A stretch of DNA of 64,000 bases from Octopus vulgaris (taxonomy: Eukaryota). Positions 1 through 30,733 of this stretch are shown here, one piece after another. The stretch covers positions 17,360,001 to 17,424,000 of the forward strand of contig OX597816.1 of NCBI GenBank assembly GCA_951406725.2, given 5' to 3'. The notes under the pieces were generated by a model. It worked only from the letters and a program-made list of their open reading frames with translations. It made no database searches and was not told where the DNA came from. A program made the translations under genes and the position numbers. How positions within the stretch are numbered: the stretch's first letter is position 1; every line of letters starts with the position of its first letter.

Positions 1-154
1 TTGTCATCATCATCGTCATCATTTTAATGCCCACTTCTCCATGCTCGCATGGGTCTGATGGAGTTTCTTGAGGCAGGTTTTCTATAGCAGGATGCCCTTC
101 CTGTCACCAACCCTTACCTGATTCAAAGCAAGGAGATATTTTCTCCATGGCCCT

Positions 155-668
155 AATTCTTTTACTTGTTTCAGTCATTTGACTGTGGCCATCCTGGAGC
201 ACCTCCTTTAGTCAAAGAAATCGACCATAGGACTTATTCTTTGTAAGCCTAGTACTTATTCTATTGGTCTCTTTTGCCAAACTGCTAAGTGACAGGGATG
301 TAAACACACCAACATCAGTTGACAAGCGATGGTGGTGGACAAACACAGATACAAACACACACACACACACACACACATTAAGGGTGGTGAGCTGGCAGAA
401 ATGTTAGAATGCAGGGTAAAATGCTTAGCAGGATTTTGTCTGCTGTTATGTTCTGAGTTCAAATTCCACCGAGGTTGACTTTGCCTTTCATCCTTTTGGG
501 TTTGATTAAATAAGAACCAGTTACACACTGGGGTCGATGTAATTGAGGTAATCCCTTTGTCTGTCCTTGTTTGTCTCCTCTATGTTTAGCCACCTGTGGG
601 CAATAAAGAAATACATACATCATCATCGTTTAACGTCCATTTTCCGCGCTAGCACGGGTTATGCATAT

Positions 669-9794: not shown

Positions 9795-10210
9795 TAGTTA
9801 CGCATTGGGGTCGATGTAATTGACTTTATCCCTTTGTCTGTCCTTGTTTGTCCCCTCTATGTTTAGCCTCCTGTCGGGAATAAAGAAATTAGAAACGTTA
9901 GCACGCCGAACGAAATGCTTAGTGGCATTTCATCTGTCTTTTACATTCTGAGTTCAACTTCTGCCGAGATCAGTTTTGCCTTTCATCCTTTTGGGGGCGA
10001 TAAATTAATTACAGTTGTGTACAGAGGTCGACCTAATAGACTGGCCTCCTGCCCCAAAATTTTGGACCTTGTGCCTAGAGTAGAAAAGGATACACCTTTA
10101 TATTAAGGTGCTGAGTTGGCAGAATTGTTAGCATACCGGACGAAATGCTTAGTGGTATTTCATCTGTCTTTATGTTCTGAGTTCAAATTCTGCTGAGGTC
10201 GACTTTGCCT
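9795..10210 (+). mobile_element. SINE family B fragments in tandem
   Basis: Three partial family B units. Confidence 0.75.
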
Positions 10211-10221
10211 TGTTTTTTGTT

Positions 10222-10267
10222 AACACAGCATTTTGGCTGATACACTCTCCAGCCTTCATCAGGTGTC
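10222..10267 (-). ncRNA. Hammerhead ribozyme relic (GAAA mutated to AAAA), same family as 12092-12137
   Basis: Minus strand: GACAC-CUGAUGA-A-GGCUG-gagaguguau-CAGCC-AAAA-U-GCU-GUGUU; followed on + by the same tRNA-like head (about 10292-10335). Confidence 0.65.
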
Positions 10268-11171
10268 TTGGGGTAATATGCCATTCCTATGGCATATGGC
10301 ATAGTGGTTAAGAGCGTGGGCTACTAACCCCAAGAGGGGCGATAAATTAGATACCAGTTGCGTACTGAGGTCGATACGATCGACTCCTTCTCCCTGAAAC
10401 GAAAGCAATGCATTTCAACAGAAATAAGGTAACAAATGGGTTCAATACAGGAATTGGATATAATATTATTGTAAAGGATTTTTATCAGGAAATATATGTT
10501 CGTAAGATGCATATTGTTTAGAGATAGGATGAACAACTATTCTCCAAATACATTGATTAATGCAAGAAAAATAAATACAATATAAGGTGTTTTATTTCTA
10601 TCAGGGTTTAAAATCGTGTATTTTTTTTCACAACTCAGATAATTGTTAACAGTTATAATAACCTTATGTTTCTTTCTTCAATATATCATGTTTGATGCTT
10701 TCTCCTAAATTTTCTTTAGACATTTTAGAAATTGCTTCATAGAGTAACCAGCCTTGTTGCCTTCATGGTTGACGAGTTTATTCTTTGTAGCTTCTCGGAA
10801 GCTGTATATCTTCAATAGTGATTAGATGCATTACATCTGATGTTATAAGAATGATTGATGAATCAGTCCATTTTGTATGAAATTTCTAAGAAATGAAGGA
10901 ATCTTTCACAAAAGATGTCTTTGATAAGGAACTATTGCAATGTATAGAATTTTTTTCTTTCACAAAGTATTTCCCTAGAAAAGGGTACATTTTTCTATAC
11001 AAATATATAATGTTAATAAATAATGCGATTGGTCAAGTGACTTCCACCACAACAGTGACTGTCTTGAAGAAACAGAAGCAATTTTAACTCTAATCATGGT
11101 TTCTGGGTAAATACAACTATTTGTTGTATTTTTAAATCTATTTTGTATTTGTTTGTTTTATTGTTATTTAG

Positions 11172-12029: not shown

Positions 12030-12265
12030 AAATTTACATTATTTACATTATTTACATTTGACGGATATTTGTCCTCATCTTGTTTTTTGCTAACACAACG
12101 TTTCAGCTGATATACCCTCCAGCCTTCATCAGGTGTCTTGGGGTAATTTCGAACCTGGGTTCTCATTCCTATGGTATATGGCATAGTGGTTAAGAGTGCG
12201 GGCTACTAACCCCAAGATTCCGAGTTCAGTTCCAAGCAGTGACCTGAACAATAATGACAATGGTG

Positions 12266-12320
<55 letters not shown>

Positions 12321-12395
12321 TAATAATAATAATAATAATGATAATAGTAATAATAATAATAATAATAGTAACATCGAAAAATACCTTAGGAATTA
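12030..12395. mobile_element. Composite element: inverted Penelope-like hammerhead segment + tRNA-derived Pol III head + (AAT)n
   Basis: A-box tggcatagtgg 12179-12189, B-box-like gttcagttcc 12224-12233, (AAT)n to about 12370; 12381-12393 is the reverse complement (12/13) of 12165-12177. Confidence 0.7.
12092..12137 (-). ncRNA. Minimal type-I hammerhead ribozyme with an intact catalytic core
   Basis: Minus strand: stem I GACAC, CUGAUGA, A, stem II GGCUG-gagggUAUAU-CAGCU, GAAA, palindromic AACGUU stem III (GUU triplet), stem I' GUGUU. Confidence 0.75.
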
Positions 12396-12444: not shown

Positions 12445-13178
12445 ATGGCACAAGGCCCAACATTTTTTTGGGGTAGGGGCTGGTCGATTAGGTCGACTCC
12501 AGTATGCAACTGGTACTTAATTTATCGACTCTAAAAGAATGAAAAGCAAAATCAACCTTGGCAGATTTTGAACTCAGAACGTAAGGACGAACGAAATGCC
12601 GCTAAGCATTTTGTCCAGCATGCTAACGTTTCTTAGTTCTTTATTGCCCACAAGAGGCTAAACATAGAGGGGACAAACAAGGACAGACAAAGGGATTAAG
12701 TCGATTATATCGACCCCAGTGCATAACTGCTACTTAATTTATCGACCTCGAAAGGATGAAAGGCAAAGTGGAGTTTGAACTCAGAATGTAAAGACAGACG
12801 AAATACCTATTTCTTTACTACCCACAAGGGGCTAAACACAGAGAGGACAAACAAGGACAGACAAATGGATTAAGTCGATTATATCGACCCCAGTGCTTAA
12901 CTGGTACTTATTTAATCGACTCCGAAAGGATGAAAGGCAAAGTCGACCTTGGCGGAATTTGAACTCAGAACGTAGCAGCAGACGAAATATCGCTAAGTAT
13001 TTTTGCCCGGCAGGCTAACATTTCTTATTTCTTTATTGCCCACAAGGGGCTAAACATAGAGGGGACAAACAAGGTAAAGTCGACCTCAGTGGAGTTTGAA
13101 CTCAGAACGTAAAGACAGACGAAATACCGCTAAGCATTTTACCCGTCATGCTAACGTTTCTGCCAGCTCGCTGCCTTA
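12445..13178 (-). mobile_element. SINE family B concatemer (about 4 units)
   Basis: Repeated tttctttattgcccacaagggg...gaaatacc units. Confidence 0.85.
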
Positions 13179-14670: not shown

Positions 14671-15189
14671 TGGTGTGGTCAATGCCAGTGCCGGCTGACT
14701 GGACTTGTGCTGGTGGCACGTAAAAAGTACCATTCGAGTGTGGTTGCTGCCAGGGCTGCCTGGCTGGCACCTGTGCTGATGGCACGTAAAAAGCACCATT
14801 CAAGTATGGCCAATGCCAGTATCACCTGACTGGCCCTCGTGCTGGTAGCATGTTAAAAGAACCCACTACACTCTTGGAGTGGTTGGTGTTAGGGAGGTCA
14901 GATGGATTGGAACCTGGTGCAGCCTTCTGGCTCGACAGCCCTCAAAGATCTAAAAAATACAAAAGGACCCAAAAAGGAATAAAAGAAAAAAGAGAAAAAA
15001 ACACATTTTTAACCCCCCCTCATATTCTCTCTCTTTCACCTTCTCCATCCCTCTATTTCCCTATCACTCTCCCTCTCTCTCTCTTTCACCTTCTCCCTCC
15101 CTCTATTCCCCATTATACACACACACACTCTCTTTCTCCCAACTTCATTCACCAATAATATAAAAACAGGCAAAACTCTACAAACTGAC

Positions 15190-15230
15190 ATTTCTGATGA
15201 GACTACAGTAGTAGTTGAAGGTGCTTAAAT
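15190..15230 (+). ncRNA. Hammerhead-like motif with one core substitution (GAAG)
   Basis: AUUU-CUGAUGA-GACUAC-agua-GUAGUU-GAAG-G-UG-CUU-AAAU: 4-bp stem I, 6-bp stem II. Confidence 0.55.
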
Positions 15231-15304
15231 ATGTAATTAAATTTGTGATTTGAAGAAATAATATGTGATATGTAAATAAATATATATATATTTTTTATAT
15301 ACAA

Positions 15305-15477
15305 TAGGCGCAGGAGTGACTGTGTGGTAAGTAGCTTGCTAACCAACCACATGGTTCCGGGTTCAGTCCCACTGCGTGGCATCTTGGGCAAGTGTCTTCT
15401 GCTATAGCCTCGTGCCGACCAAAGCCTTGTGAGTGGATTTGGTAGACGGAAACTGAAAGAAGCCTGTCATATATATG

Positions 15478-15509
<32 letters not shown>

Positions 15510-15725
15510 CATATGTGTGTCTGTGTTTGTCCCTCTAGCATTGCTTGACAACTGGTGCTGGTGTGTTTACGTCCCCGTCACTTAGCAGTTCGGCAAAAGA
15601 GACCGATAGAATAAGTACTGGGCTTACAAAGAATAAGTTCCCGGGGTCGATTTACTCGACCAAAGGCGGTGCTCCAGCATGGCCACAGTCAAATGACTGA
15701 AACAAGTAAAAGAGTAAAAGAGTAA
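15305..15725 (+). mobile_element. SINE family A, young full-length copy
   Basis: taggcgcaggagtgactgtgtggtaag...gaaacaagtaaaagagtaaaagag. Confidence 0.9.
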
Positions 15726-15879
15726 ACCATCCAGTATTCTGAACGCCTTTTTCTTTCATATGTATTAAATGTGTACATCACCCCATTACTTTTAATATAT
15801 ATGCCCCAGCATGGCCACAGCTCAAGAGCTGAAACTGGAAAATATAAACATAATATATATGTATATAAACTTAGATAAA

Positions 15880-16156
15880 CTTAAATATGCTTTGACCAAA
15901 GATTGGTCCAGGCCATGTCTAACTTAATAGCACCACCTGATAGAATTATCTAAATCCTTTTAAAGTCAAGTTTTGGTGTATAATGGTCCATTCAAGTAGT
16001 GAGTTTTTGTTGGGTGAGTTGTATCCAATTATGGGTGGCTTATCTGGTATTCCTTGAAGGAATCTATCCAGACTCCATTTAAAGTTGATAGGATCCTTTT
16101 CCTCTTTGATCTCTTTCGAGGGCCTGTTGAGGAAAAGAAATTATGTTGCAGTGTAC

Positions 16157-16160
<4 letters not shown>
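15880..16160 (-). mobile_element. CR1-type LINE ORF2 C-terminal fragment
   Basis: Minus strand translates EIKEEKDPINFKWSLDRFLQGIPDKPPIIGYNSPNKNSLLEW (compare FKMKLDLFLSGIPDEP in the LINE at 37610-38239). Confidence 0.7.
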
Positions 16161-16219
<59 letters not shown>

Positions 16220-17026
16220 GAAAAATATCGTTATAGGTATAAAAATACAATAAACTATTATAGAAAAATGGAGGAGAAAACGATGTTGAATCAAAACTAG
16301 GTTTAATACAAAATAGGATTCAATACATACACACGTTTCAAAGGACAATACAAATATATATATATGTATGTATGACAACATTGGCTTTTTCAGCTTCCAC
16401 TTACCAAATCCTGTCAAAAGGTTTTGCTCAGCTCAATGATATAGTGGAAAACAATTTGTCCATGGTACCAAATGAACCTGAAACCACAAGGATGGCATAA
16501 CAGCTTCTTAACCACACACAAAAAAAAAAAAACACCTGCATCTTACTATGTTGATTATCATAATAATAATATAGATAATGGACATTCATATGACTTTGCC
16601 ATATTGATAGTCAAGTGAATAATATTTCTTCCAGATTGTCTGTCATCGTACAAATTGTTGTCAAATTTGATTTATCATAAATGTATCTTAACAATCACTT
16701 CCTCTCTCACTCTTCCTGTCTTTCCTTCTCTCTGTCTCTCTCTCTCTCTTTGTCCTAAAAATTACCTTTTTGTTATTTTTTTACAATATGTGTGTATATA
16801 TGTTTGTATGAATGTATGCATATATGTATATATGTGAGTGTGTATGTATGTACATAAATGATGATTGGAGAATGAGGAATCAGCCATCATTTATCTATCT
16901 ATCTATCTATATACATACATATATACATATATATGCATATATGTGCATTATATACATGTATACATTTATGTGTATATACATGTATATATTTATGTATGTA
17001 TACATATATATATATGTGTATATACG

Positions 17027-17052
<26 letters not shown>

Positions 17053-17062
<10 letters not shown>

Positions 17063-17297
17063 TACATATATTTATATACATACATGCATATATATATTGT
17101 TTTTTCTTGCTTGTTCATGTTTAGATTGACTATACACACACACACATCATCATCATCATCGGATGCTAAACGATGATGATGATGATGATGATGATGATGT
17201 GTGTGTGTGTGTGTGTATAGTCAATCTAAACATGAACAAGCAAGAAAAAACAACATATATATGCATGTATGTATATAAATATATGTTTGTGTGTATA
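17053..17297. repeat. Inverted repeat with arms of at least 105 bp centred on a family C tail remnant
   Basis: ttgttttttcttgcttgttcatgtttagattgactat is mirrored as atagtcaatctaaacatgaacaagcaagaaaaaacaa around ggatgctaaac (17161-17171). Confidence 0.9.
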
Positions 17298-17304
17298 TAC
17301 ATAC

Positions 17305-17344
<40 letters not shown>

Positions 17345-17854
17345 ATACATATATATGTATATATATATATATAAATACATATATATATACATACACATAC
17401 ACACACATGCACAGAGACACATATGTAAATATGTATATGTATATATATGTATATAGATCTGTTAATTTATTACTGTCAATGAACCAGTAACTTTAATCTA
17501 CATTTTCTATTTACATCTCATATATATTTTCCAACACTTTTTGTGTTTTCTTAACATTTTACATTCACATCAGTGTTGTTGTCTCCTCATAGTCTTTTTA
17601 TTTGCTTTGTCATATATTTTCGTAGGGGTACAGACTGGGTGGGAGACGTGACGTTATGTATGAGAACCATTTTGCAGCAAGGAATATGTACTCTTAAGAT
17701 TGGTCTGCTGGCGATGAACTGTGACCCAGTATGGTTAAGAAAAGTTCGGAAACGTTCTCTGAATTTACAGAACCAGATTGATTAGTGACTTTAAAAGTAA
17801 CACATCTGAGGTGAAGGAATGAGATATAGTAGCATATATATATGTATATATATT

Positions 17855-17910
17855 CTTTTACTCTTTTACCCTTTTACTTGTTTCAGTCATTTGACAGTGA
17901 CCATGCTGGC

Positions 17911-17958
<48 letters not shown>

Positions 17959-18136
17959 GCCAGCAATGCCTTTAGTCGAGCAAATCCACCCCAGGATTAA
18001 TTCTTTGTAAGCCTAGTACTTATTCTATCGGTCTCTTTTGCTGAACCATTAAGTTATGGGGACGTAAACACACCAGCATCGGTTGTCAAGCGATGTTAGG
18101 GTGACAAACACAGACACGCAAACATATACTCACATG

Positions 18137-18223
<87 letters not shown>

Positions 18224-18390
18224 TCATATATATACGATGGGCTTCTTTCAGTTTCTGTCTACCAAATCCACTCACAAGGCTTTGGTTGGCACGAGGCTAT
18301 AGTAGAAGACACATGCCCAAGTTGCCATGCAGTGGGGCTGAATCATGTGGTTGATAAGCACGCTGCTTACCACACAGCCAAACCTATGCC
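17855..18390 (-). mobile_element. SINE family A with internal microsatellite expansions
   Basis: Family A blocks interrupted by (TA)n/(CA)n. Confidence 0.8.
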
Positions 18391-19166
18391 TATATACATA
18401 TATATATACACATATGTGTGTGTATGTATATATGTATATATATAAGTGTATGTATGGATGTGTATATATGTGTATGCATGTATGTATGTATATATATTTG
18501 TGTATGTATGTATGCATATATGTGTATGTATATATGTATTTATATATGTGTATGTATATAAGTATATATATAAGTGTATGTATATATATGTGCATGTATA
18601 TAAGTGTATAAATATGTGTATGTATGTTTGTATGTATATATGTGTGTGTGTGTGTATGTGTATACGTGTGTGTGTATTTATATATGTATATATGAATGTA
18701 TATATATATATGTCTGTGTATGTGTTGGTGTATGTTTTGGTGTATATATATGAAACAAATTGTAAATCAACGCATCTGATATAAAGAGATGATACATAAT
18801 GGTATATACATATATATATATATATATATAAATACACATATATAACCAATAATTATAGGTGCTGTGAGATCATGGCTGCTTCACAAATTTATAGATCAGA
18901 TATTTGAATATAATGAATATAAATGGGTGTAGACATGAAATGCAGGCTATATTTAACTTTCTCGAGCCATTAGACGGTAACCATGCTCAGGCATGGCCTT
19001 GCTCTCCTTGTTTTCTTTTAACCCTGGGTCTTATTCTAGCAATCTCTTTTGTTAAATTGCCAAATTATGGGGATGTAAACAAACTAACACCAGTTGTCAA
19101 GTGGTGGTGGTGGAGACAAACACAGACAGATAGACAGACACACACCACACACACACACACACACAT

Positions 19167-19214
<48 letters not shown>

Positions 19215-19236
19215 ACAGAGCAGGCTTCTTTCAGTT

Positions 19237-20015
19237 TCTTATTTCTTTATTGCCCACAAGGGGCTAAACATAGCGGAGACAAACAAGGACAGACAAACGG
19301 ATTAAGTCGATTACATCGACCCCAGCACGTAACTGGTACTTAATTTATCAACCCTGAAAGGATGAAAGGCAAAGTCGACTTCGGCGGAATTTGAACTCAG
19401 AACGTAATGCCAGACGAAATACCTATTTCTTTACTACCCACAAGGGGCTAAACACAGAGGAGACAAACAAGGACAGACAGATGGATTAAGTCGATTATAT
19501 TGACCCCAGTGCGTAACTGGTACTGAATTTATTGACCCTGAGAGGATGAAAGGCAAAGTCGAGCTCAGTGGAATTTGAACTCAGAATGTAATGGCAGACG
19601 AAATACCTATTTCTTTACTACCCACAAGGGGCTAAACACAGAGGAGACAAACAAGGACAGACAGACGGATTAAGTCGATTATATTGACCCCAGTGCGTAA
19701 CTGGTACTGAATTTATCGACCCTGAGAGGATGAAAGGCAAAGTCGAGCTCGGTGGAATTTGAACTCAGAACGTAATGGCAGACGAAATACCTATTTCTTT
19801 ACTACCCACAAGGGGCTAAACACAGAGGAGACAAACAAGGACAGACAGACGGATTAAGTCGATTATATTGACCGCAGTGTGTAACTGGTACTGAATTTAT
19901 CGACCCTGAGAGGATGAAAGGCAAAGTCAACCTCGGCGGAATTTGAACTCAGAACGTAACGGCAGACAAAATACCGCTAAGCATTTCACCTGGCGTGCTA
20001 ACGTTTCTGCCAGCT
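19237..20015 (-). mobile_element. SINE family B 4-unit concatemer (184-bp period) inserted in a family A SINE
   Basis: Junction gaaatacc|tatttc at 19424, 19608, 19792; TSD ctttcagtttc on both sides. Confidence 0.9.
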
Positions 20016-28948: not shown

Positions 28949-29137
28949 CATTTTTTCTATTCATTCTTAATACATTTCAGCAGACTCGAATACAAATATG
29001 CTAGTCACTGTTGTATCTGTCACAAGATGACGTCTCCTTTCTACAATGACAGTGTGCTTATCACATACACAGCCCACTGGTGCATGGGATTCTGGAACAC
29101 CAGTGTTTCCTCATGTTGTGTCTCATCAGACAAAATC
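28945..29137 (-). mobile_element. About 190-bp dispersed repeat carrying a hammerhead motif (29088-29137); retrozyme/Penelope-like
   Basis: 28945-29118 is repeated at 58126-58299; minus strand GAUUUUGU-CUGAUGA-GACA-caaca-UGAG-GAAACAC-UG-GUGUU-CCAGAAUC. Confidence 0.6.
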
Positions 29138-29139
29138 AG

Positions 29140-29281
29140 CTACTAAATCCACTCACAAGGCTTTGGTTGGTCTGAGGCTAAAGTAGAAGACACTTGCCCA
29201 AGGCTCCACGCAGTGGGACTGAACCCATAACCATGTGGTTTGTAACAAATTACCTACCACACAGCCACTCCAGTGCCTATA
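29140..29281 (-). mobile_element. SINE family A 5' half whose head is amplified into the adjacent array
   Basis: gacacttgcccaagg and gtgggactgaaccc (B-box) continuous with the first array unit. Confidence 0.85.
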
Positions 29282-30733
29282 GCTACGTACCACACAGCCA
29301 CTCCTGCACCTATGGCTACCTACCACACAGCCACTCCAGTGCCTATAGCTACTTACCACACAGCCACTCCTGCACCTATGGCTACCTACCACACAGCCAC
29401 TCCTGTGCCTATGGCTACCTACCACACAGCCACTCCAGTGCCTATAGCTACTTACCACACAGCCACTCCTGCACCTATGGCTACCTACCACACAGCCACT
29501 CCTGCACCTATGGCTACCTACCACACAGCCACTCCAGTGCCTATAGCTACTTACCACACAGCCACTCCTGTGCCTATAGCTACTTACTAAGCAGCCATTC
29601 CAGTGCCTATAGCTACTTACCACACAGCCACTCCTGCACCTATGGCTACCTACCACACAGCCACTCCAGTGCCTATAGCTACTTACCACACAGCCACTCC
29701 TGCACCTATAGCTACCTACCACACAGCCACTCCTGCACCTATGGCTACCTACCACACAGCCACTCCTGCACCTATGGCTACCTACCACACAGCCACTCCT
29801 GCACCTATGGCTACCTACCACACAGCCACTCCAGTGCCTATAGCTACTTACCACACAGCCACTCCTGTGCCTATAGCTACTTACTAAGCAGCCATTCATG
29901 TGCCTATAGCTACTTACCACAAGGCCACTCCTGCACCTATGGCTACCTACCACACAGCCACTCCTGCACCTATGGCTACCTACCACACAGCCACTCCTGC
30001 ACCTATGGCTACCTACCACACAGCCACTCCTGCACCTATGGCTACTTACCACACAGCCACTCCTGCACCTATGGCTACTTACCACACAGCCACTCCTGCA
30101 CCTATAGCTACTTACCACACAGCCACTCCTGCACCTATGGCTACCTACCACACAGCCACTCCTGCACCTATGGCTACCTACCACACAGCCACTCCTGCAC
30201 CTATGGCTACCTACCACACAGCCACTCCTGCACCTATAGCTACCTACCACACAGCCACTCCTGCACCTATGGCTACCTACCACACAGCCACTCCTGCACC
30301 TATGGCTACTTACCACACAGCCACTCCTGCACCTATGGCTACTTACCACACAGCCACTCCTGCACCTATGGCTACTTACCACACAGCCACTCCTGCACCT
30401 ATGGCTACCTACCACACAGCCACTCCAGTGCCTATAGCTACTTACCACACAGCCACTCCTGCACCTATGGCTACCTATGACACAGCCACTCCTGCACCTA
30501 TGGCTACCTACCACACAGCCACTCCAGTGCCTATAGCTACTTACCACACAGCCACTCCTGCACCTATGGCTACTTACCACACAGCCACTCCTGCACCTAT
30601 GGCTACTTACCACACAGCCACTCCTGCACCTATGGCTACTTACCACACAGCCACTCCTGCACCTATGGCTACTTACCACACAGCCACTCCTGTGCCTATA
30701 GCTAACTACCACACAGCCACTCCTGCACCTATG
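29249..30733 (-). repeat. 33-bp minisatellite, 45 copies, derived from the SINE A head (Pol III A-box)
   Basis: Unit gctacctaccacacagccactcctgcacctatg; 1485 bp = 45 x 33; equals the reverse complement of the SINE start taggcgcaggagtggctgtgtggtaagtagc. Confidence 0.95.

Follow-up and report, generated by a model that had tools for sequence, protein, structure and literature searches.

The locus at 12030-12395 of the window (the whole 64,000-nucleotide stretch of Octopus vulgaris DNA analysed here) places a tRNA-like head next to a hammerhead ribozyme and thereby raises two questions: to what kind of mobile element do these parts belong, and which polymerase reads it? The initial annotation took the locus for a separate non-autonomous SINE. 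The genomic copies lead to a different answer. The head, an (AAT)n tract and the hammerhead appear to form the terminal repeat (pseudo-LTR) of an autonomous Penelope-like element (PLE), and the sequence makes it likely that this PLE is copied from a tRNA-type (Pol III) promoter.

Two inverted copies in the window

A complete minimal hammerhead on the minus strand, lying back-to-back with an A/B-box head and an (AAT)n tract, had been described at this locus, and both a descriptor match and the sequence itself bear this out (Table 1). The ribozyme consists of a stem I GACAC/GUGUU, CUGAUGA, one extra A, a 6-bp stem II, GAAA and a palindromic AACGUU. It is the single match to a type I descriptor in the whole 64-kb window; in 100 block-wise Markov shuffles the mean was 0.04 matches with a loose descriptor and 0 with a strict one. 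Its 4-5 bp helix I, long helix II with an extra base at the 5' end, and palindromic helix III fit the minimal architecture of PLE pseudo-LTR hammerheads, as given in the available part of the source (PMC4209133). Rfam reported nothing at gathering score anywhere in the window, and between 12060 and 12260 neither a hammerhead nor a tRNA family even at E<=10. When the monomer is folded, the minimum-energy structure is not the active fold (z -1.07). No covariation was found among 16 distinct copies of the hammerhead, which is uninformative because these are dead copies of one master that decay neutrally.

Table 1. Features of the two window copies, with positions in the window.
Feature	Positions	Strand	Remarks
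Inverted 5' arm, start of PLE ORF	12032..12177	-	ATG at 12166-12164; ends at the short 3'-end cluster (ATG+135)
Minimal type I hammerhead inside coding sequence	12092..12137	-	Predicted cut between 12097 and 12096 (ATG+70/71)
tRNA-like head of pseudo-LTR	12173..12247	+	A box TGGCATAGTGG at 12179-12189; B box GTTCAGTTC at 12224-12232, damaged in the window copy
(AAT)n tract between head and ORF start	12248..12370	+	Length differs widely among copies
Linker and beginning of direct arm	12371..12393	+	Stops at start codon; 23 nt repeating the start of the inverted arm
Second copy, inverted arm with core-mutated hammerhead (10222-10267)	10209..10277	-	
Second copy, inversion junction and head	10283..10335	+	A box at 10297-10307; broken off before the B box

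The hammerhead lies within a reading frame. The frame of the inverted arm is open from the ATG to the end of the arm, and in another genomic copy (L144) the same frame runs on into a PLE N-terminal domain. The remainder of the direct hammerhead arm is absent after 12393, where unrelated repeats begin. The last 13 bases before this point (12381-12393) had been given as the reverse complement of 12165-12177; the two segments are related, but agree at 12 of 13 bases. The arrangement had also been said to recur at 10210-10335. The same back-to-back junction is indeed present there, but the ribozyme core is broken (GAAA to AAAA, GUU to GCU) and the copy stops before the B box. Both window copies are solo, 5'-inverted copies of the pseudo-LTR. 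Each is a single inversion, not the tandem units by which a non-LTR retrozyme would be recognised.

The two copies (10209-10335 and 12032-12393) share rare variants (TTACCCC, AAAAAAC) as well as the inversion junction, so that one may be a local duplicate of the other. No target duplication was found around the copy at 12030-12395, as its right arm is cut off. Elsewhere in the window, 12447-13170 and 19235-19955 hold an abundant SINE-like repeat in tandem units of 174-184 bp, which we take to be CORE-like, and 29119-30700 holds a 33-bp minisatellite of about 44 or more units.

The parent element and its copies

The whole genome assembly (2.8 Gb, 227 contigs) was searched for the parent unit. 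Head, (AAT)n and hammerhead are collinear on one strand in thousands of genomic copies, and in a sample of 30 loci selected by the head, 28 carry the hammerhead segment on the same strand no more than 700 nt downstream, so that the order proposed for the parent in the initial annotation was right. The coding end of a GIY-YIG endonuclease lies directly upstream of the head in two of 30 loci selected by the hammerhead segment (L017, L023). When loci were selected by the endonuclease, the head followed the GIY-YIG end in 28 of 30 among the matches listed; it lies behind the endonuclease in 18 of 20 extended regions, two of which contain ~2.5 kb of ORF. In the decayed natural copies L091, L093, L096 and L105, reverse transcriptase (RT) is followed by a C-terminal GIY-YIG in one ORF. 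The RT matches PF00078 (E 5.8e-8) and the C-terminus matches GIY-YIG clusters at 0.97 by features, while the GIY part did not reach the Pfam threshold of E 0.01. The hammerhead "tail" is itself coding: it consists of the first ~55 codons of the RT ORF that follows, in frame with the N-terminus. From one end to the other, the unit comprises the ORF (RT, GIY-YIG) with its stop, then ~45 nt, the head, the (AAT)n tract and an ATG, with the hammerhead falling within the first 25 codons and the rest of the ORF behind it. The suggested link to a PLE RT, with the tail matching an RT plus GIY-YIG element, is thus confirmed by PF00078, by the GIY-YIG end upstream of the head and by the frame of the tail.

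No intact ORF of this family was seen, all copies examined being decayed. Ten protein homologues have 57-69% identity; metagenome and viral contigs yielded no relatives with DNA context. The endonuclease has a CCHH motif, with YSIPCSCGRLYKG followed by two His, and two cysteines between GIY and YIG (by eye). The CX2-5CxxC linker finger, which marks Neptune and Nematis, is absent from L105 and nine homologues; it is present in a Neptune-like control family, to which identity is only 31%. By the definitions of the CCHH motif and of the PLE clade features in the available text of PMC8557442, the element is a canonical EN+ PLE of the Penelope/Poseidon clade, an assignment made on features. Tandem pseudo-LTR structure, 5' inversions, an optional 30-40 bp tail and variable target duplications are all present. 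Since the tail is coding in L144, and since the ORF of Poseidon_Ac likewise overlaps its hammerhead (PMC11167929), we regard head-(AAT)n-hammerhead with high confidence as the pseudo-LTR of an autonomous PLE.

In three loci (L008, L019, L028) the 3' end of another retroelement replaces the head just upstream of (AAT)n and looks inserted into the tract. This retroelement is presumably a LINE with a restriction-like endonuclease (Dong/R4-like).

The copies are not evenly represented along the unit. Exact 20-mers occur in the genome 842 times at -150, 963 times at -33, 3,429 times at +1 (counted with two degenerate positions), 5,148 times at +30 and 9,734 times at the ORF start. Counts are flat over the 117 nt between -150 and -33 and then step up 3.6-fold across 33 nt at +1. 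The step is not an effect of divergence, because the words at -33, +1 and +30 match at similar rates in 30 endonuclease-selected copies (9, 7 and 8 of 30; the 15 of 30 at -150 is biased by the selection). From these counts roughly 3,000 ORF-linked copies are estimated, versus 15,000-19,000 head copies.

The ends of individual copies were also scored. A positional sample of 30 loci, one of them without a match, placed 22 of 29 scored 5' ends at -7..+7, some of the -7 ends being fold-backs; five lay at -17..-26 (three of these being extended by fold-back or by chance), and a further two lay at +21 and -490. Of the head-selected loci, 28 of 30 begin at -14..+12. The 3' ends form two clusters ~30-40 nt apart, with 77 of 157 at ATG+112..140 and 70 of 157 at +160 or beyond, the query ending at ATG+163. 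These two clusters are the PLE "tail", which has been explained in vitro by two internal RT start sites (PMC11167929). Where at least two ends could be scored, 42 of 46 loci had one short and one long end (hand tally), a pairing that would fit a model in which the two cut strands are primed at different sites. Six insertions (L005, L006, L010, L023, L024 and L026; by eye) have target duplications of 8-13 bp on either side.

More complex copies occur as well. Breakpoints recur in the ORF at about +235, past the tail (L148, L158, L160), and at +255-267 (L144, L154, L156), where the N-terminal region of the ORF runs into a new head or into the cut site of the hammerhead; these points may mark a third priming site or an RNA end. 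Most simply, joins of ORF+235..265 to a new head or cut site are template jumps. Junctions of ORF start to head are found in L144, L148, L156 and L158. Behind one head, L020:740-1833 (oriented) carries six tandem ~190-bp units of (AAT)-linker-hammerhead-tail, a retrozyme-like array. Among 30 tail-selected loci, just L020 (six units) and L009 have tandem units.

The excess of head-started solos over ORF-linked copies, about 4-6 to 1, is what might be expected of a self-propagating, self-cleaving non-autonomous SINE that has its own masters and uses a PLE enzyme in trans. The small tandem forms (the L020 array and the four ORF-start-to-head junctions) and the target duplications around solos also speak for such an element. 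However, the head belongs to the autonomous element, directly behind its GIY-YIG stop, and the tail is coding sequence. A SINE head should be absent from the autonomous partner, with the 3' part alone shared, and here it sits in the partner. The solos moreover end at the priming sites, and Poseidon_Ac needs RNA beyond these sites, namely the first 172 nt of its ORF (PMC11167929). Nor is there a sign of a separate master lineage: 15 solo and 10 ORF-linked heads, a small sample, carry the same variants with no diagnostic site, and an A/G variant after the B box is present in both. We consider the independent SINE of the initial annotation improbable; its head and tail are parts of an autonomous element.

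The probable promoter and a proposed copying mechanism

In the majority of copies the head has TGGCGTAGTGG and GTTCGATTC, which match the consensus A and B boxes perfectly, at tRNA spacing; GTTCGATTC stands where the B box of the window copy is damaged. Identity of the head to the tRNA-Asn of this genome is ~60%, and to tRNA-Thr it is similar (hand count; the comparison covered Asn and eight other labelled tRNA genes, with no Ser(GCT) or His gene among them). A single isotype for the head was rejected, as Asn and Thr fit about equally. One of the compared genes, labelled Glu, resembles a Lys variant. The 5' acceptor strand of the head is not tRNA-like and no cloverleaf fold is formed (z +1.85). 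Neither Rfam nor ARAGORN called the head a tRNA, and ARAGORN found no tRNA in the window. The ~20 nt just upstream of +1 are a degenerate inverted copy of the start of the head and can form a hairpin (-11.9 kcal/mol, z -1.35). In the autonomous element at L042:1750-1790 an inverted copy precedes the head, as if the ORF-head junction had arisen by fold-back.

An element that is read by Pol III is expected to lack T4+ terminators in its sense strand. TTTT is absent from the sense strand of L105, L143, L145 and L146 (1.7-2.3 kb each), occurs once in L162, and occurs one to three times each in L091, L093, L094 and L096 at unshared positions. The total is 8 TTTT in about 17 kb of copies, none of them common to copies. 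Decay of T3 runs (13 in L143) would be expected to give about this number; base composition predicts about 5 TTTT per 2.3 kb. In three Neptune-like families of the same genome, TTTT occurs 9 times in 2,346 nt, 8 times in 1,725 nt and once in 1,005 nt (18 in 5.1 kb). The T content of the family with nine is 21%, below the 22-23% of the tRNA-headed element. These control PLEs tolerate T4-T6, and an A-box match was found in only one of 38 control loci, far from the element. The terminator depletion supports Pol III reading. It is not decisive, since the controls come from another clade (Neptune-like, not Poseidon-like, and one of the three nearly TTTT-free) and the comparison is by composition rather than against a codon-level null.

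A young Neptune-like PLE family (L262:945-3290, L238, L243, L263) still has a 781-aa frame that is intact in at least 15 of the 148 matches listed. Its long 3' repeat behind the ORF contains TGACGTCA, CCAAT-like and TATA-like words (by eye), and the minimal hammerhead pattern is absent from L238.

Transcription was assessed with three RNA-seq runs mapped on a near-full-length copy; their strandedness is unknown, and such libraries can miss uncapped RNA. Reads fall equally in both orientations, 62-67% of them continue into unrelated flanks, and read starts or ends do not pile up at +1 or at the cut site in any of the three runs. Depth is 2-6 at the ORF N-terminus versus ~1,000 at the tail and follows genomic copy number. 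Among the RNA joints listed for the three runs there is no spliced joint in the pseudo-LTR, and no circular-RNA joint at the cleavage site, to which the library type is unsuited. The pattern looks like passive read-through from old copies, which neither shows nor excludes a germline Pol III transcript. The contig depth of run X19 has no step at the head, where the head bins lie below the upstream bins and reads are flagged as cut at the repeat. Against the Pol III model stand the read-through pattern, the X19 depth without a step, the negative Rfam and ARAGORN results for the head, the decay of every ORF seen, and the junction hairpin, which is a second possible cause of the 5' pile-up; the translation of uncapped RNA is its unexplained point.

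These observations bear on the main rival explanation. In this view the element is an ordinary Poseidon transcribed by Pol II, and its pseudo-LTR carries, as a fixed passenger, an old fragment derived from a tRNA. The 5' step would then come from the junction hairpin, acting as an RT stop or through cDNA snap-back, or from a Pol II start at this place, and the lack of TTTT would be compositional. That the hairpin spans the junction, that head-to-head fold-backs centred on the junction are frequent, and that RNA-seq gives no sign of head-initiated RNA are all in keeping with this explanation, as is the Inr/DPE promoter with intron of the one PLE whose promoter has been dissected, according to the available text of PMC2377424. 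However, non-inverted solos with unique flanks also begin at -7..+7, an interval that lies past the copied 3' arm of the hairpin and presumably not where the stem would stall RT. A compositional account must also accommodate the absence of any shared TTTT in an element expected to have several, next to control PLEs that tolerate T4-T6, and a fossil fragment does not explain why the majority head keeps perfect boxes at tRNA spacing. On balance we find a fixed fragment of this kind rather unlikely.

The reading that we prefer, at a probability of roughly 0.6, is that Pol III transcribes the element from the head and that RT starts internally, at ~120-165 nt of the ORF, and from there copies the RNA as far as +1, with SINE-looking solos as the result. 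On a tandem master, Pol III would start at about -7..+1 and read through the terminator-free ORF. The RT/EN protein would cut both target strands and prime reverse transcription internally at two sites near the ORF start; internal priming near the ORF start has been shown in vitro for Poseidon_Ac (PMC11167929). Priming at the first pseudo-LTR would copy head-(AAT)n-hammerhead alone and halt at the RNA 5' end, which would give the SINE-looking solos. Priming at the second pseudo-LTR would give ORF-containing copies that are randomly truncated, and priming on both strands would give an inversion as in the window copies. The solos, being without sequence beyond the priming sites, may be dead ends that are unable to spread.

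In this mechanism cleavage by the hammerhead would fall behind the start codon and would take either a dimer or the help of a protein; insertion probably does not require the ribozyme. It is dispensable for insertion in the sole PLE studied in vitro (PMC11167929). Cleaved RNA as the usual template was rejected, as none of 30 positional tail loci begins at the cut site. A 5' junction lies 0-4 nt behind the cut site in 5 of 30 ORF-start-selected loci, and small deletions are found at the cut site in 5 of 30 loci. Such junctions and deletions are at most a hint of cleavage in vivo, because the TGTTAACA palindrome and slippage-prone repeats would explain them equally well.

A bolder version of the Pol III reading is tentative, with somewhat less than an even chance. 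According to this version, Pol III reads a protein-coding autonomous retrotransposon over its full length, starting at a tRNA promoter that the element captured, terminators have been cleared from its 3-kb unit, the hammerhead behind the start codon switches the RNA between message and template, and the SINE-like copies are a by-product.

Related systems and implications

The octopus element shares much with Poseidon_Ac of the green anole and Penelope of Drosophila virilis, as far as the available parts of these accounts describe them (PMC11167929; PMC2377424). In common are a single ORF with RT and C-terminal GIY-YIG, a partial-tandem pseudo-LTR, a hammerhead that overlaps the beginning of the ORF, two 3' ends separated by 30-40 nt, inverted 5' ends and a transcription start inside the pseudo-LTR, which is inferred for the octopus. 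In contrast to Penelope, an A/B-box head and (AAT)n replace the Inr/DPE/intron promoter described in that text (PMC2377424). Unlike both elements, it has a sharp 5' end at +1 with SINE-like solos, and a sense strand without shared TTTT. Hammerheads in PLE repeats occur mostly in single truncated copies, sometimes in opposite-strand pairs, according to the portion of PMC4209133 that is available.

The combination of a tRNA head and a hammerhead is itself not new. Sm-alpha and Sj-alpha of Schistosoma are tRNA-related, carry a type I hammerhead, are reported to be Pol III-transcribed and number in the tens of thousands (PMC2770079; PMC6765202, both in part). In these partial accounts they are non-coding and often tandem, carry the promoter at the cleaved monomer's 3' end and are given no named autonomous partner, whereas in the octopus the pair sits in a protein-coding element. 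A small-RNA-derived Pol III promoter likewise lies in the terminal repeat of the TRIMp3 elements Cassandra, Helenus and Ajax. As described in the available sections of PMC10886601, these are short, non-autonomous LTR elements, while the octopus element is an autonomous PLE of ~3 kb; the same sections state that autonomous partners of TRIMp3 must use Pol II, Pol III being weakly processive. Animal non-LTR retrozymes are short hammerhead repeats derived from PLE pseudo-LTRs (PMC7229834; bioRxiv 10.64898/2026.07.22.740005). The six-unit L020 array fits this description, but most octopus copies are monomers or inversions rather than tandem arrays, and neither a tRNA head nor a Pol III promoter is mentioned for retrozymes in the accessible passages of the two papers. 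Penelope and SINE families are both listed in an octopus repeat annotation of 2026, whose available part gives no such detail (PMC13282606). No account of a tRNA or Pol III promoter in a PLE was found in the open literature, as far as its text is accessible; Repbase, Dfam or the library of PMC13282606 may already hold the family as Penelope or SINE.

What is new is a tRNA-type promoter within an autonomous element, a reading that the sequence motivates well but that is unproven. Transcription of an autonomous retrotransposon is expected to rely on Pol II, or on Pol I in the case of R2. A coding element of 3 kb that has A/B boxes, steps up in copy number at +1 and shares no terminators among its copies would be a testable exception to the Pol II rule and, if the reading is true, the Pol III counterpart of the Pol I-transcribed R2. 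It would also call for an explanation of translation from an uncapped RNA. The loci with one short and one long end (42 of 46) give genomic support for the PLE mechanism worked out in vitro, with two internal RT starts and priming on both strands. The element offers an origin for tRNA-plus-hammerhead SINE-like repeats and, if the Pol III reading is true, there would be a direct route from PLEs to tRNA-hammerhead SINEs such as Sm-alpha. It also calls for caution with repeat libraries, as "SINE" annotations in such genomes can be PLE terminal repeats.
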